Part shown: positions 10,884-32,000 of the stretch, one piece after another
Numbering within the stretch: position 1 is the first letter of the stretch
How the letters are laid out: every line of letters starts with the position of its first letter
Source of the DNA: Candidatus Iainarchaeum sp.
GTDB taxonomy: Archaea; Iainarchaeota; Iainarchaeia; Iainarchaeales; GCA-2688035
Direction: 5' to 3'
Assembly (NCBI GenBank): GCA_028713935.1
Contig: JAQTNI010000008.1
Location: 3,846 to 35,845, forward strand
DNA length: 32,000 bases
Position numbers and translations under genes: made by a program
Notes under the pieces: generated by a model
Told to the model about the DNA's origin: nothing
The model's database searches: none
Seen by the model: only the letters and a program-made list of their open reading frames with translations

Positions 10884-11161
10884 CATAATTTGTTCTTTTT
10901 GTTATTTCGGCTAATTGGCAATTTTTTTACAATAACAACTAATGCGGAAAATTTGAAAGAAGAGGGCCTTTAAAAAAGAAGAACTGAACTTAAGGTGAGC
11001 CTATCCCTCTTCTCCCAACTCAATTGGTTTTGTCCTCCTAAGTTATGGTATAGATATACGGCTGTTCCTAAATATATAAAACAACTGACTTTTGATGTAA
11101 CAAAAAATACATTTTAAATATCTTTGATGTGATATTTTTAATATTGGAATTGGTTTTTTTT

Positions 11162-25532: not shown

Positions 25533-26471
25533 ATGTTTGTTGAAGTCAGGGAAGCTGCGGGAAAGAAAAAATACTATTTGGTCTATTCTTTCAGGCATGG
25601 CAAGAAAGTCAAGAAAATCAGAAGATACCTTGGCACAAATCTAAGCAAAGAAAAACTCTCTGAATTGCGAAAGATTGCAGAACAACAGATAGCCCAAAGA
25701 GTTAATGTTTTCAAGAAAATCAGCGACCCCTTGCTTGAAGTTCTTTCAGAGGGAGAAATACAAAAAATAAAAGAATTGCAGGAAAACAAGCAATTCAAAA
25801 TATTCCACTTGTCAGAAGAAGAATGGAAAAGGTTCTCGGAAGTTTTTACCTATAACACCAATGCAATTGAAGGCTCGGAATTAAACCAGAAAGAAGTAAA
25901 GGAAATACTTGAAAAAGACAAGTGGCCGAAAGACAAAAGCAAAGAAGACATTTCCGAAGCATACGGGGTAAAAGAAGCAATTCAATTCATTAGGGAAACC
26001 AAAGAGCACGTTTCAATAGAATTAATCAAAAAAATACACAAAATTATCTTTGAGAACTCAAAATCCTATGCGGGCCAACTCAGGCAAAGAGGAATCGAGG
26101 TCGTCGTAAGGGATGGATTGGGCAACACAGTGCATGAAGGCGCACCATCAGAAAAAGTAACAGAACTGTTGAAAGAGCTTGTTGAATGGTACAACAAATG
26201 CAAAAAGAAGTATCCCCCGATATTGCTTGCGAGCGTTGTCCACAACCAGTTTGAAAACATCCATCCGTTCCAAGACGGGAACGGCAGGGTCGGCAGGATA
26301 TTAATGAGCAACATACTCATAAAACACGGGCTTCCGCCGGTCAACATTGACCTCAAGAATAGAAAAAAATACTATCAAGCACTGCAAGAATACGAAAAAA
26401 ACCATGACACGAGGCCAACAATAGAATTATTGTTAGAGGAATACAAGCAACTCAAAAAACAATTAAGGTGA
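25533..26471 (+). CDS. Fic/DOC family protein (AMPylase-type motif)
   Basis: Canonical Fic motif HPFQDGNGRVGR, plus an upstream TNAIEG matching the (S/T)xxxE(G/N) inhibitory-helix motif. Confidence 0.85.
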   Translation: MFVEVREAAGKKKYYLVYSFRHGKKVKKIRRYLGTNLSKEKLSELRKIAEQQIAQRVNVFKKISDPLLEVLSEGEIQKIKELQENKQFKIFHLSEEEWKRFSEVFTYNTNAIEGSELNQKEVKEILEKDKWPKDKSKEDISEAYGVKEAIQFIRETKEHVSIELIKKIHKIIFENSKSYAGQLRQRGIEVVVRDGLGNTVHEGAPSEKVTELLKELVEWYNKCKKKYPPILLASVVHNQFENIHPFQDGNGRVGRILMSNILIKHGLPPVNIDLKNRKKYYQALQEYEKNHDTRPTIELLLEEYKQLKKQLR

Positions 26472-26523
26472 CCACAAAATAGCAAGGCGTGGCCACCCAG
26501 TGATAACTAATTGCTGCTTGCGC

Positions 26524-27528
26524 TTAGAATGAGTAAAAATTTCTTTCCCAAACATGTTTCCTGAGCTCTTTCAACAATGCGGGAGAAAGAATTTTTCCGT
26601 CTGAAATAGCAGTGTTTTGTTTTACATATTCTGTTTTCCGCATTCCGGGGATTGCAGTGGAAACTTCTTTGAAGGACAAAACATACCTCAATGCCAGTTC
26701 CGGAAGGCTCTTGGCTTCATTGCCAAGCAGTTTTTTCAGGGCATCAGTTCTTTTCACAAGTTCTTTCAGCCTTTCATTTGCAAAATATTTTTTCCTGAAA
26801 TCGCCTTCCTGAAAAACAGTGTTTTCAGTTACCTTCCCTGACAGCCCGCCTTCATCAAGCGGCACTCTTGCGATTAAGCCAATTTTATTTTTTCTGGTAT
26901 ATGGAAACAATTCTTCAATTGGTTTTTGATGAAAAATATTGAATATGAACTGAATAGTGGATATCAGGCCGGTATCCAGAGTTTGGATGCAACTGGATGG
27001 CTCGTAATCGTTTATTGATATCCCCCAATGCTTTACCTTTCCTTCCCTGCTAATTTTTTGCATGGTTTTTTTCCAGCCTTCTTCTTTTGCAAAGCTGTCC
27101 TGCCATACATGAAACTGAACCAGGTCAATGCTGTCAACTCCCAAACTGTTCAATGAATCGTCCACACATTTCTCAATATGGCCATCGGGAAATATTTGTG
27201 ATATTGGGATTCCTTTCCTTGCAGGCCATTGGAAATTTTTTGGCGGTATTTTTGTTGCAATTATTATTTCCTCTCTTCTTCCTGATTCTTTCAAAAATTT
27301 TCCAATCAGTTCTTCAGAAGGATGCTTATTTGGTTCGGTTTTAGAGTATCCATAAATCCAGGCAGTATCAATGAAATTTCCGCCCAATTCAACAAATTCA
27401 TGCAGGGTATTCAAACTTTCTTTGAGGTCTGCCCCGACCCAGCAATTAGGGTCATTGGCAAGTTGCCATGTTCCACAGCCAATCTCGGAAACCTTTAAAC
27501 CAGTTTTCCCCAAAACCCTGTATTTCAT
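26524..27528 (-). CDS. Aldo/keto reductase
   Basis: MKYRVLGKTGLKVSEIGCGTWQL, NFIDTAWIYG, HWGISN-like KHWGISIN and the C-terminal AIPGMR. The ATG at 27528 is preferred over the upstream GTG. Confidence 0.85.
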   Translation of the reverse strand: MKYRVLGKTGLKVSEIGCGTWQLANDPNCWVGADLKESLNTLHEFVELGGNFIDTAWIYGYSKTEPNKHPSEELIGKFLKESGRREEIIIATKIPPKNFQWPARKGIPISQIFPDGHIEKCVDDSLNSLGVDSIDLVQFHVWQDSFAKEEGWKKTMQKISREGKVKHWGISINDYEPSSCIQTLDTGLISTIQFIFNIFHQKPIEELFPYTRKNKIGLIARVPLDEGGLSGKVTENTVFQEGDFRKKYFANERLKELVKRTDALKKLLGNEAKSLPELALRYVLSFKEVSTAIPGMRKTEYVKQNTAISDGKILSPALLKELRKHVWERNFYSF

Positions 27529-27556
27529 TCCAATCACCCATATTGCAATAGTTAAT

Positions 27557-28312
27557 CTAACGTTTCTTATCAGAATATTCCCAGTGCTGCGGAAGAGTAA
27601 ATTTCATTCCTTGGGTTCTTCTTTTGGCAACAATGCTGTTTTGCATTTTTCCAGAAAATATGTTTGCCCCAAGCTGGCCCACTGGAACATTTTTTGTTAC
27701 ATATGTGTAGGTCTTGGAGTCAACCAGCCCCTCCAAAGAATATGCTGCAACTGGCTCTAAAAGAAAAATTGGCCTTTCTGATTCCGGAACTTCAACCATT
27801 CTTATTAATTTGTATTCAATCCAAGACATCGCTTCCCTGATTATCGGCACATTTAATTTTTGTGAGTCCTGCAAGGTAAATCCACTGTCCTTGATTTTTT
27901 TATTGCCGGAATTATAACTTCCGTCAGAAAGCACATACATCTTTTCAACATCTTTTTGTTTTGGCCAGAGAAAATTTGCAACTGCCTCTCCTGTCTCAAG
28001 CAACCCAGCGTAAGTTTTTCTTGTGCCAGTAACAGATACCAAATGGACTGGAGGCCCGGCACTCTCAAATGGCCCAGTATGCTTTGGGGGCCTTTTGCCC
28101 TGCAATGTCAAAGTCGACATGGGGGCAGCATCATAATCAAAATCAGGGTTGTATGAAAACCCCGGCATTCGAGCGAAGTATTCATCATGGATGCCAAGCC
28201 CTTTTCGTATTGTAGTTAATACTGCAACCGGCCTTGGAGCGCACAGATTAAAAGCAGCATAGAGCGGAACGCTCATAATTTTTTCTTTTTTATCTTCAAA
28301 TTTGCTTGCCAT
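27557..28312 (-). CDS. Flavin reductase-like (FMN-binding split barrel) protein with an insertion
   Basis: PRPVAVLTT, PPVHLVSV, TGEAVANFL and VPIIREAMSWIEYKL...PIFLLEPVAAY follow the flavin-reductase-like domain pattern, with an extra segment of about 40 aa after the first strand. Confidence 0.5.
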   Translation of the reverse strand: MASKFEDKKEKIMSVPLYAAFNLCAPRPVAVLTTIRKGLGIHDEYFARMPGFSYNPDFDYDAAPMSTLTLQGKRPPKHTGPFESAGPPVHLVSVTGTRKTYAGLLETGEAVANFLWPKQKDVEKMYVLSDGSYNSGNKKIKDSGFTLQDSQKLNVPIIREAMSWIEYKLIRMVEVPESERPIFLLEPVAAYSLEGLVDSKTYTYVTKNVPVGQLGANIFSGKMQNSIVAKRRTQGMKFTLPQHWEYSDKKR

Positions 28313-28620
28313 AACAAAGTAGTAATGGGCATATGAAATTAAAGGTTAACATCCATATTCTCAATTGGCGATGATGAGGTTATAGCCTGAAATTTGGCAG
28401 GTGTTACCACTATTTTTCAAAATTTTTTCAATCCCTATTGGAGTGGTCTTAGGCGGATATTTTAAACGTTGCTCCGCACGAAGAATGCCGCTTGAAATTA
28501 CGACGAAGAACTGAAGAACTCTTTATGTAAACAAATTCCTCTTTATAAATAAGAGGTCGTTTTTGTGTTATCTGCAGTTAACGCAAACTGTTAATTTGTG
28601 TTAAGTGCGTTCCCTAAATA

Positions 28621-28676
28621 GTTACTTAAAACAGTAACATTTATTAACTATTTGTTACTAAAATAGGTAACATTTA
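28621..28676 (+). promoter_or_regulatory. Two tandem dyad-symmetric sites (putative operator) bracketing a TATA-like element upstream of the DUF4143 ATPase gene
   Basis: GTTAC-N8-GTAAC-ATTTA occurs at 28621-28643 and again at 28654-28676, 33 bp centre to centre. ATTTATTAA lies between the copies. The GTG start of the ATPase gene is at 28679. Confidence 0.35.
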
Positions 28677-28678
28677 GG

Positions 28679-29980
28679 GTGTTGTTTTTGGCTATAATTG
28701 ATGTTTTAAACGAATGGAACCCTTGGTGGTTCGGCAAAAAAGAAGTGCTCGAAGAACTTGCCGGTGTTGAAAGACCCGAATATGGGGGAATAATAAAAAC
28801 GGTTGACATGCGGGAAACAACAGTCATTACTGGCATAAGGCGCTCTGGAAAAAGTACCATAATGTACCAGATGGTTAAACGCTTGATAGAAAATAAGACA
28901 GATCCCAAAAACATTTTGCTGGTAAACTTTGAAGACCAAGCACTCATTGACGTGCCACTGGATGAAATTTATGCCGAATACAGACAAAAAATAAACCCTA
29001 ACAAAAAAGCATTCCTTTTCCTTGACGAAGTCCAGAAAAAAGAGAAATGGGAACTCTGGGTGAGAAAAAAATACGATTTGAAAACCGATGCAAAATTTGT
29101 CGTTTCCGGCAGTTCTGCCAGACTGCTAAAGAAAGAATATTCCACTCTGCTAACAGGCAGGATTGTTTCTTTTGAAATAATGCCGCTTAATTTCAAAGAA
29201 TTTTTGGGATTCTCAAAAATAAGTTTCGACAAAAAAATGGCAGAGAACGGGCTATTTGCAGAGCAAGACAAACCAAAAATACAAAACGCTTTAGACCAAT
29301 ACCTGAAAGAAGGCGGTTTCCCAGAAGTATTCTTCAAAGAAAAAGAACAAAAAAGACTGCTCTTAACCAATTATTTCGATGACATAATTTTCAAAGATAT
29401 TGTAGACAGGCACGGCATAAAGAGCCAAAAACCAAAAGAATTAGCAAGGCACCTAGCAACAAACCTTGCAGGAAACATATCACTCCGAACTCTTAGGCAA
29501 GCCACTGAATTGTCATACGACCAAATAAAAGAATATTTGAATTACCTTACAGAAGCATTCCTGTTCTTTGAAACAAACCATTTCTCATACTCGCTGAAAG
29601 AACAAAAAACCAGGCCAAGCAAAATATACTGCGCAGACAACGGATTAAGGAATGCCGTGGCTTTCAAGTTTTCCGAAGATGCTGGAAAGCTCGCAGAAAA
29701 CCTCGTATTTCTAGAACTGAAAAGAAGGGGCGCTGAAACATACTATTGGAAAAACAAAAATGAAGTGGATTTTGTAGTCAAAAACCCAGATAATTCTCTT
29801 GATGCGATAAACGTTTCCTTCACTGATGAAATAAACGAGCGAGAAACGGCAGGCCTACAAGAATTCAAGAAACAAAACAAAAGAACTGGCAAATTGCTGC
29901 TAATAACAAAAAACCTGGAAAAAACCCAACAAGAAATAAAATATATTCCGCTCTGGAAATGGCTAATAATGAAGGAATGA
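28679..29980 (+). CDS. AAA+ ATPase with a DUF4143-type C-terminal domain
   Basis: Walker A GIRRSGKST, Walker B FLFLDEVQ. The overall layout is typical of the AAA_14 plus DUF4143 family (…YLKEGGFPE…, …NEVDFVV…). The start is non-ATG (GTG 28679 or TTG 28682). Confidence 0.8.
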   Translation: MLFLAIIDVLNEWNPWWFGKKEVLEELAGVERPEYGGIIKTVDMRETTVITGIRRSGKSTIMYQMVKRLIENKTDPKNILLVNFEDQALIDVPLDEIYAEYRQKINPNKKAFLFLDEVQKKEKWELWVRKKYDLKTDAKFVVSGSSARLLKKEYSTLLTGRIVSFEIMPLNFKEFLGFSKISFDKKMAENGLFAEQDKPKIQNALDQYLKEGGFPEVFFKEKEQKRLLLTNYFDDIIFKDIVDRHGIKSQKPKELARHLATNLAGNISLRTLRQATELSYDQIKEYLNYLTEAFLFFETNHFSYSLKEQKTRPSKIYCADNGLRNAVAFKFSEDAGKLAENLVFLELKRRGAETYYWKNKNEVDFVVKNPDNSLDAINVSFTDEINERETAGLQEFKKQNKRTGKLLLITKNLEKTQQEIKYIPLWKWLIMKE

Positions 29981-30076: not shown

Positions 30077-31024
30077 ATGATTTTTATGAAATTTGAAAAA
30101 ATTGTTTTGTATGATTTGAAATCAAAACCGCTTGAAAAGGAATTTATAAAAAAACTGAAAGAATTTGCTAGTTCCGTGAAAGTGGTTTTCGCTGAAGCAG
30201 AATATTCAAGAAGGCTAAAACCTGCAGACCTTATAGACGCTGATGCTTTTGTAACGAGAATATTTGATTATTATGACAACTCGCTGTTTGAAAATAAAAA
30301 AATAAAGTACATTGGAGCAATGCATACTGATATTTCGCATTTTGACAAGGATTTCCTTAACAAAAAAAGGATAACTTTGACCAATGTTCCTGATTATGCA
30401 ACAGAAGCGGTTGCAGAGCTAACAATATCAGCATTGCTCAACATTTCCAGACAGACTTATGATGCAATGAATCTTGTCAAAAGCGGGCATTGGGGTTTTG
30501 AAGGTTTTTTGGGTTGGGAATTGAAAGGTAAAACACTTGGAATAATTGGTTTGGGAAAAATTGGAAGCAGAGTTGCTGAGATTGCTAAAAGCTTTGGAAT
30601 GAACACAGGTTACTATTCAAAAAGTAAAGGAGATTTGCCTTACAAGTTTCTGGAATTAAACGACCTATTGAAACAAAGTGATGTAGTAAGCTTGCATTGC
30701 CCGCTTACTGATGAAACCAGAAATATTTTGAACAAAACCAACTTGAAATTATTGAAACAAAACGCGGTGCTACTGAATTCTGCAAGAATGGAACTAGTGA
30801 ATTTAGAAGCACTGTATGAACTCTGCCAGCAAAAAAAGATTTTCGTTTGGTTTGATGAATTACAAGATAAAAAGTGGAGAGAAAAATTCAGAAAATTGGA
30901 CAATGTTTATTTGACTCCTGACTATGGCTGGATGACGAGAGAAGCACAAGAAAGAGTCAGAGAAATCGCCCTAAACAACATAAAATTTTATCTTGAAGAA
31001 TATGCTCGGGCTAACCGGACTTAA
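30077..31024 (+). CDS. D-isomer-specific 2-hydroxyacid dehydrogenase family protein (atypical active site)
   Basis: NAD-binding GKTLGIIGLGKIGSRVAEIAKSFGM, LHCPLTDETRNILN and NSARMELV. The usual TPH catalytic His position reads TPD. An alternative ATG start is at 30086. Confidence 0.8.
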   Translation: MIFMKFEKIVLYDLKSKPLEKEFIKKLKEFASSVKVVFAEAEYSRRLKPADLIDADAFVTRIFDYYDNSLFENKKIKYIGAMHTDISHFDKDFLNKKRITLTNVPDYATEAVAELTISALLNISRQTYDAMNLVKSGHWGFEGFLGWELKGKTLGIIGLGKIGSRVAEIAKSFGMNTGYYSKSKGDLPYKFLELNDLLKQSDVVSLHCPLTDETRNILNKTNLKLLKQNAVLLNSARMELVNLEALYELCQQKKIFVWFDELQDKKWREKFRKLDNVYLTPDYGWMTREAQERVREIALNNIKFYLEEYARANRT

Positions 31025-31045: not shown

Positions 31046-31069
31046 TGTCCGAACTTTCGGACATTTTTT
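31046..31069 (+). terminator. Hairpin plus T-run downstream of the dehydrogenase-like gene
   Basis: TGTCCGAA-CT-TTCGGACA is a perfect 8-bp-arm palindrome (31046-31063), followed by TTTTTT (31064-31069). A third TTCGGACA copy lies at 31074-31081. Confidence 0.4.
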
Positions 31070-31214
31070 GAATTTTCGGACAAAAAAGCAAATTTGCAAT
31101 TCCAAGCGAATTTTTGCTTCAATTCAAAATTAGTTCGTATAAACGCGACAAAATCACAGCAAATGATAAACCAATACAATATTCTTTTATGGTGTTATCG
31201 CCTACTATTTTTCA

Positions 31215-31274
31215 GGCGATGATGAAGTTAACACCGTCTGACGCAAGAATGATGAGTTAACTCAACACTGAGCC
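31215..31274 (+). ncRNA. C/D box sRNA (2'-O-methylation guide)
   Basis: The element reads GGCg-AUGAUGA(C, 31219-31225)-12 nt AGUUAACACCGU-CUGA(D', 31238-31241)-CGCAAGA-AUGAUGA(C', 31249-31255)-12 nt GUUAACUCAACA-CUGA(D, 31268-31271)-GCC. The terminal GGC/GCC can pair, a T-run follows, and CTTTTAT lies about 25-30 nt upstream. Confidence 0.75.
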
Positions 31275-31402
31275 TTTTCTTGCAAGCAAGAAAAGCCTCG
31301 GGAAAAGAATATTTTTTTCTTTTCTTTGGGCAACTTACACTTTCTTTTTCTTTTTTCCAAAAAGAAAAGAAAGGGCAGCTCAACACTGAGCCTTTTGCAA
31401 TC

Positions 31403-32000
31403 TTATTTTTGCAGCATTGCTGACAGTTTTTCATAGTTTGGCCATTTGTGGTAGCAGTAATAAAAAGTGCTTAGCATTACTGCTGTCAGGTTGTGTTCTT
31501 CCCATTCTGAAAGTTGTTCCCCTTTCTCTGCTTTTGCCAGAAGCCCTTTTATGTATTCTGGGCTTGCTCCGGCAATTGTGAATATTTCATTGTAACTGTT
31601 TTTTGGAACAGGCTTTTCGCCAAAATAAAACCCTCTTGGGGATTGTTCAACTTGTTCTCTTGCACTGCCTTTTGCCTGGTGCCTTGCGTCTGCACAAGCT
31701 GCTTTTGCACCGCTGAAAATCCACCTAATGGCTTTGCCGTGCCGCACTATTGTTTTGCTGCTTCCTTTTTCAAGGTCCTGGACAATTGCCCTGTGCTTAA
31801 TGCCCAATCTTTCATAATGCCTGTGCAATTGCCTTGCGTGTTCTTCAGGGTCTGCAGATAAAGGCATTTTCCTTATTGCCCTGCCAATTGTTTCGCCTGC
31901 CTTGTCACTCCAGCCAATGCTTTGTGCAAAGCCGGAAACATTTTTTGCTGTTGCTGCAAGATTTTCAACGCAAAGTGCTTTTCCGCCTCCACAGGCAGCT
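31403..32000 (-). CDS. Hypothetical protein, C-terminal part (open at the window end)
   Basis: The track ORF starts at the ATG at 31867, but my translation shows the frame stays open to position 32000 (…AACGGGKALCVENLAATAKNVSGFAQSIGWSDKAGETIGRAIRK-MPLSADPEEH…). No family recognised. Confidence 0.45.
   Translation of the reverse strand, partial: AACGGGKALCVENLAATAKNVSGFAQSIGWSDKAGETIGRAIRKMPLSADPEEHARQLHRHYERLGIKHRAIVQDLEKGSSKTIVRHGKAIRWIFSGAKAACADARHQAKGSAREQVEQSPRGFYFGEKPVPKNSYNEIFTIAGASPEYIKGLLAKAEKGEQLSEWEEHNLTAVMLSTFYYCYHKWPNYEKLSAMLQK

Follow-up and report, generated by a model that had tools for sequence, protein, structure and literature searches.

Positions 31215-31274 on the plus strand of the window, as we call the whole 32-kb stretch of DNA analysed, very probably form a functional gene whose product is an archaeal box C/D sRNA with two guides; the host belongs to the DPANN archaea (Iainarchaeota/Diapherotrites). 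Its membership of the box C/D class, and of no curated family, is well supported by its anatomy, by the improbability of such an arrangement arising by chance, by a syntenic ortholog in a second genome, and by full-length, sub-threshold matches to covariance models. An earlier sequence-only reading had described a canonical dual-guide C/D sRNA in an intergenic region, and the same lines of evidence uphold that description. Box C/D sRNAs are seldom annotated.

The host is identified as a DPANN archaeon of about 40% GC by the proteins that the window encodes. These include archaeal housekeeping proteins (Cdc48, Orc1/Cdc6, an Obg/YchF-like GTPase, a topoisomerase, NFACT and a MiaB-like enzyme), as well as a 2-hydroxyacid dehydrogenase whose gene (30077-31024) lies just upstream of the sRNA. 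A protein of a 'Candidatus ainarchaeum sp.' MAG is 100% identical to the dehydrogenase, and the second-closest sequence, with 83% identity, belongs to a 'Candidatus Diapherotrites archaeon' MAG.

The sRNA gene sits between two protein genes and reads, in order, GGC-G-AUGAUGA-12 nt-CUGA-CGCAAGA-AUGAUGA-12 nt-CUGA-GCC-UUUU. We confirmed base for base the layout of boxes, spacers, stem, T-run and upstream CTTTTAT that had been proposed. The features are given below together with their state in the syntenic ortholog, locus L002 of the Diapherotrites MAG GCA_040755695.1.

31184-31190, plus strand: TATA-like element CTTTTAT, a putative promoter element, within the gap-free conserved block 31176-31214
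31215-31274, plus strand: whole box C/D sRNA gene, 60 nt
31215-31217, plus strand: 5' half of the terminal stem, GGC, pairing with GCC at 31272-31274; identical in L002
31218, plus strand: spacer G, read from the sequence
31219-31225, plus strand: C box AUGAUGA (DNA ATGATGA); unchanged in L002
31226-31237, plus strand: D' guide, 12 nt, AGUUAACACCGU (DNA AGTTAACACCGT); core GUUAACACC at 31227-31235 kept in L002
31238-31241, plus strand: D' box CUGA; unchanged in L002
31242-31248, plus strand: D'-C' linker CGCAAGA (K-loop); the most variable segment relative to L002
31249-31255, plus strand: C' box AUGAUGA; degenerate GUGAAGA in L002
31256-31267, plus strand: D guide, 12 nt, GUUAACUCAACA (DNA GTTAACTCAACA); core UUAACUCAAC at 31257-31266 kept in L002
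31268-31271, plus strand: D box CUGA; unchanged in L002
31272-31274, plus strand: 3' half of the terminal stem, GCC, pairing with GGC; kept in L002
31275-31278, plus strand: T-run TTTT, a likely archaeal oligo-T terminator; TTTTT in L002

Archaeal C/D sRNAs are defined by a length of 50-70 nt, RUGAUGA and CUGA boxes, and guides of 10-12 nt (PMC7994747), and the kink-turn test that we applied is taken from the same source. The sequence described here has the RUGAUGA and CUGA boxes, internal D' and C' boxes, guides and overall length within these ranges, a terminal stem, and the signs of a kink-turn: GA dinucleotides in the C and D boxes, an available U, and a G at C-box position 6 that would face the C at D-box position 1.

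This arrangement occurs once in the window. A regular-expression scan of both strands for the four boxes returned a single match, against an analytic chance expectation of about 6e-6 per 32 kb, and none of 500 first-order Markov simulations produced one. A looser pattern with the terminal stem as an added condition returned the same single site, with a null mean of 0 over 200 simulations. No tRNA was found in the window. These numbers argue against a chance arrangement of the four boxes. A related reading would make the sequence part of a small open reading frame (31114-31260 on the plus strand, or 31228-31434 on the minus strand), and mechanically called ORFs of 48 and 68 amino acids do overlap the region. 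We found no protein evidence for either, and comparison with L002 reveals indels of 9 and 5 nt upstream of the sRNA and a 4-nt length difference in the linker within it, which rules out a conserved reading frame across the sRNA. Taken as a coincidence of motifs or as coding sequence, the locus is thus explained with next to no plausibility, and we return to its reading as a guide RNA gene.

Covariance models place the sequence in the same class. A search of Rfam at the E-value threshold gave 53 matches, nearly all of them to C/D-box families, on the plus strand and extending end to end (31215-31273/4). Among them are sR1 (RF01152; 23.9 bits, E = 1.7e-4) and snoPyro_CD (RF00095; 26.1 bits, E = 9e-4, model positions 1-58 of 58), and weak matches include the eukaryotic families snoR38, SNORD36 and SNORD60. 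No family reached its gathering score anywhere in the window (the thresholds are about 45 for sR1 and snoPyro_CD). Scores below gathering are expected, as these models include family-specific guide sequences.

The ortholog occupies positions 11152-11215 of L002 (64 nt), about 230 nt downstream of the gene for the 83%-identical dehydrogenase, and reads GGC G AUGAUGA GGUUAACACCUU CUGA GGCGCAAGCCU GUGAAGA CUUAACUCAACC CUGA GCC UUUUU. Three of the boxes (C, D' and D) do not differ between the genomes, nor do the terminal stem and the two 12-nt spacings, and the guides share cores of 9 consecutive nucleotides (D') and 10 consecutive nucleotides (D), differing only at positions 2 and 12 of the D' guide and positions 1 and 12 of the D guide. 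The remaining differences fall in the C' box and in the D'-C' linker, which in L002 is the longer GGCGCAAGCCU and could form a stem of 3-4 bp capped by GCAA. By segment, identity amounts to 25/27 for the stretch between C and D' inclusive, 22/25 for everything from C' onward, and 3/8 in the linker, while the surrounding intergenic DNA is 54-58% identical. In this comparison of two genomes with one ortholog, the pattern of conservation is, at the level of sequence, the one expected of a functional guide RNA.

Logan contig L001 does not differ from the window across the sRNA and adds no independent information. Synteny look-ups found no sRNA downstream of the dehydrogenase homologs P0005, P0010, P0004 and P0003; the homologs of 74-80% identity sit in different gene neighbourhoods and are not followed by an sRNA, and the dehydrogenases P0001 and P0002 form a clade of their own. 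A synteny look-up of P0001 and the downstream ORF returned no record. Scans of viral contigs yielded 0 matches for the sRNA and 6 irrelevant matches for 16S.

Both guides contain GUUAAC, as had been observed, and the proposal that they might pair with each other leads to a different account of the locus: a structured RNA or DNA element (a hairpin, a dimerisation site, or a cis-regulatory or terminator element) and not a guide RNA. Some features point in this direction. In the minimum free energy (MFE) folds predicted for both orthologs, the region of the D' guide is paired to that of the D guide, the naked sRNA here being modelled at -13.3 kcal/mol (z = -1.9), and GAGTTAACTC at 31253-31262 is a perfect palindrome. 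The z-score is weak, however, with 6-8 of 200 shuffled sequences folding equally well, and an uncompensated G-to-C change at the first base of the D guide in L002 breaks a pair and destroys the palindrome (GAGUUAACUC). Guide-guide pairing through GUUAAC is thus not conserved in the ortholog, and the palindrome, lost there, is probably incidental. The four boxes and the exact 12-nt spacings would moreover be without a role in a hairpin, yet they are the best conserved parts of the locus. We consider an element of this kind very improbable, and a guide RNA gene remains the preferred explanation.

Upstream of the sRNA, the block 31176-31214 aligns to L002 with 30 of 39 positions identical and 0 gaps. 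It contains CTTTTAT, separated from the start of the sRNA by 24 nt, and the corresponding CTTTAAA of L002 lies at the same distance from GGC. The archaeal TATA box is centred near -27, and the spacing observed here is consistent with that. As the TATA-like box at the same 24-nt distance and the T-run are present in both genomes, we infer that the sRNA has an archaeal promoter of its own and an oligo-T terminator. Only about 20% of archaeal C/D sRNA genes have a TATA-like motif in the 50 nt upstream (PMC7994747).

Between the TATA-like box and the start of the sRNA lies GGTGTTATC (31191-31199), the upstream element to which the sequence-only reading had drawn attention and which is indeed present. 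It matches the predicted target of the D' guide, GGTGTTAAC, at 8 of 9 positions. Its counterpart in L002, GGTGCTAAC, also matches the D' target at 8 of 9 positions, with the mismatch at another position. If transcription began upstream, at the conserved TAGTTCGTATAA (31131-31142), the resulting leader could base-pair to the D' guide.

The 3' end of the sRNA gene is duplicated. An exact 18-bp direct repeat, CTCAACACTGAGCCTTTT, occupies 31261-31278 and 31379-31396; it is made up of the final 7 nt of the D guide, followed by the D box, GCC and TTTT. The copies are separated by 100 bp (31279-31378), which are predicted to form three polypurine/polypyrimidine hairpins (z = -4.26); this stretch is missing from L002 and has no second copy elsewhere in the window, and Logan contig L001, an independent assembly, ends inside it. 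Beyond the second copy, the ORF at 31403-31867 on the minus strand is an ORFan with no Pfam, PHROG or NCBIfam match, and GC content climbs from 0.32-0.39 to 0.45-0.475 beyond 31500. The repeat and the 100-bp stretch may represent an insertion or an integration scar at the sRNA 3' end. That the 3' end of the sRNA gene itself served as a site of integration or recombination, as the ends of tRNA genes do for integrative elements, is an idea we put forward as a speculative one that is probably wrong; if it were true, mobile DNA in DPANN archaea would use C/D sRNA genes as attachment sites.

From what is known of the class, we propose the following mode of action. The RNA would be transcribed from its own TATA-type promoter and end at the T-run. 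The GGC/GCC stem would bring the C and D boxes together in a kink-turn, and D' and C' would form a K-loop; L7Ae would bind both motifs, followed by assembly of Nop5 and fibrillarin. Each 12-nt guide would then pair with a target RNA, and fibrillarin would add a 2'-O-methyl group to the target nucleotide that faces the fifth guide base, counted upstream from D' or D (the N+5 rule; PMC7994747). For the D' guide the fifth base is A31233, predicting Um in GGUmGUUAAC (target core GGUGUUAAC); for the D guide it is C31263, predicting Gm in GUUGmRGUURR, that is, GUUGm(A/G)GUU(A/G)(A/G). Genes for fibrillarin, Nop5 and L7Ae are not among the ORFs of the window, a count that covers these 32 kb only. Fibrillarin is reported from over 90% of archaeal taxa; together with Nop5 it serves as a near-universal single-copy marker for archaea, DPANN genomes included (PMC9258230, PMC8481954).

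The targets most probably lie in 16S or 23S rRNA. We searched for the guide cores in eight reference archaeal rRNA sets, all from lineages other than that of the host. Neither core has an exact match in the 16S or 23S rRNAs of the seven archaea aligned by Dennis et al., N. equitans among them, or in those of Halomicrobium. The window itself holds no target for them, the tRNA-Ile of L002 does not match them, and no guide in the published sRNA set of seven species (PMC4644070) has either core. Three rRNA sets (E. coli, Halomicrobium and M. maripaludis) were in addition scored computationally, with a Watson-Crick pair required at N+5.

The best match of the D guide among these three sets is to E. 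coli 16S rRNA, positions 1083-1094, with which it forms 11 contiguous pairs. The sequence-only reading had pointed, with a hedge, to this segment of helices 35-37, and its count of 10 Watson-Crick pairs and one G:U with the E. coli sequence UGUUGGGUUAAG is numerically correct. As it stands, the site lacks support as a target for the D guide, since it has the bacterial form: archaeal 16S reads UGUCC(G/U)GUUAAGUC there in all seven archaea of Dennis et al. and in Halomicrobium, and two conserved positions of this sequence are in conflict with the guide. When GTDB species representatives were scanned for CAGCTCGT-N8-16-GTTGAGTTAA-N3-12-CAACGAGCG, there were 8 matches, all in bacterial 16S and none in archaea, which is a weak negative because the anchors would miss Halomicrobium (UAACGAGCG) and N. 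equitans (CAGCCUGU, AAACAGGCG).

Further candidates were rejected or fell to chance level. Neighbouring partial matches at E. coli positions 2863 and 2874 raised the idea of adjacent targets at the 3' end of 23S rRNA; a metagenome scan for GTTGAGTTAA-N0-6-GGTGTTAAC returned 22 matches, a number in line with chance, and none was in rRNA context. For the D' guide, GCGGGGGUAACU in helix 69 of 23S rRNA, a known hotspot also in species with few sRNAs (PMC4644070), matches at 9 of 12 positions, a chance-level result, and has a mismatch at the N+5 methylation position. Partial matches of 9-10 contiguous bp in M. maripaludis, namely ACUUGGGUUAAG in 23S rRNA (about E. coli 993-1002), UAGGUGUUAGGU in helix 26 of 16S rRNA and AAUGUGUUGAUC elsewhere in 16S rRNA, are at chance level, about 1-3 such matches being expected by chance in the scored sequence; the archaeal form of the 5' strand of 16S helix 26 is CUAGGUGUU... 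After candidates had been checked against conserved consensus columns for conflicts, no convincing pair of D and D' sites was left.

This outcome bears on whether the RNA guides methylation at all. A relic or orphan would have the C/D shape and guide no methylation, or would act only as an RNA chaperone or on a target other than rRNA. The failure to find a target in any sequence searched is compatible with this, and orphan guides are common in archaea (PMC7994747). A relic should drift, however, and here the 9- and 10-nt guide cores are identical despite flanks that are only 54-58% identical, with the boxes and the promoter block kept too; the missing targets are, for their part, explained by the searched rRNAs being of other lineages. 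We regard a relic or orphan as improbable, and favour an active guide RNA whose two guides are maintained. Since these two guide sequences are constant between genomes whose neighbouring protein is 83% identical, the comparison suggests that selection acts on two modification sites, and the organism likely has very few guides.

The neighbourhood of the gene offers some observations of its own. Window positions 31050-31080, starting 26 nt past the stop codon of the dehydrogenase gene, contain the palindrome GTCCGAACTTTCGGAC, followed immediately on its 3' side by a T-run and then by a third half-site, TTCGGAC. L002 has GTCCAAACTTTTGGAC ... TTTGGAC at about 10965-11005, with the three arms altered in concert (G to A, C to T). 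Either a terminator hairpin that has an alternative 3' arm or a repeated site for protein binding could account for this palindrome. On the other side of the dehydrogenase gene, upstream, the block 25533-29980 encodes a Fic-domain protein, an aldo/keto reductase, a flavin reductase-like protein and an AAA_14/DUF4143 ATPase; it has no synteny to L002, and the dehydrogenase-sRNA pair is the sole part common to both genomes. Homologs of the dehydrogenase with 76-77% identity occur on bacterial-looking, CPR-like contigs (L005-L007), which carry genes for type II secretion/type IV pili and GrpE-DnaK-DnaJ and which some sources assign to Wolfebacteria or Patescibacteria. This distribution of the dehydrogenase suggests gene sharing between DPANN archaea and CPR bacteria.

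The gene sequence predicts that a small-genome, moderate-GC DPANN lineage keeps RNA-guided 2'-O-methylation. The value of the finding lies in annotation and in later mapping of methylation; the known mechanism is unchanged by it.

In the literature searched, no box C/D sRNA is described for the Iainarchaeota/Diapherotrites; the one DPANN species for which a set was found is Nanoarchaeum equitans, with 26 C/D sRNAs (Randau 2012; Dennis et al. 2015, PMC4644070). The two hosts share membership of the DPANN and a small genome, and their sRNAs share the dual-guide architecture and RNA-guided 2'-O-methylation, which is predicted in the present case. N. equitans nevertheless belongs to a different phylum from the Iainarchaeota/Diapherotrites host, and its rRNAs are without both target cores. 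Families snoPyro_CD (RF00095) and sR1 (RF01152), from Pyrococcus, Sulfolobus and other archaea, and related families have the same C-guide-D'-loop-C'-guide-D layout with 12-nt spacers; a short terminal stem and a total of about 60 nt are likewise common to them and to our sRNA. Their guide sequences, in contrast, are unrelated, the scores here are 24-26 bits against a gathering score of 45, and the present host, a DPANN archaeon of moderate GC (about 40%), is no hyperthermophile. Eukaryotic box C/D snoRNAs resemble the sRNA described here in their C and D boxes and kink-turn, and in a fibrillarin-based mechanism that follows the N+5 rule, but they are longer, with degenerate C' and D' boxes and variable spacers, whereas the perfect C' and D' boxes and exact 12-nt spacers of this sRNA are those of the archaeal form.
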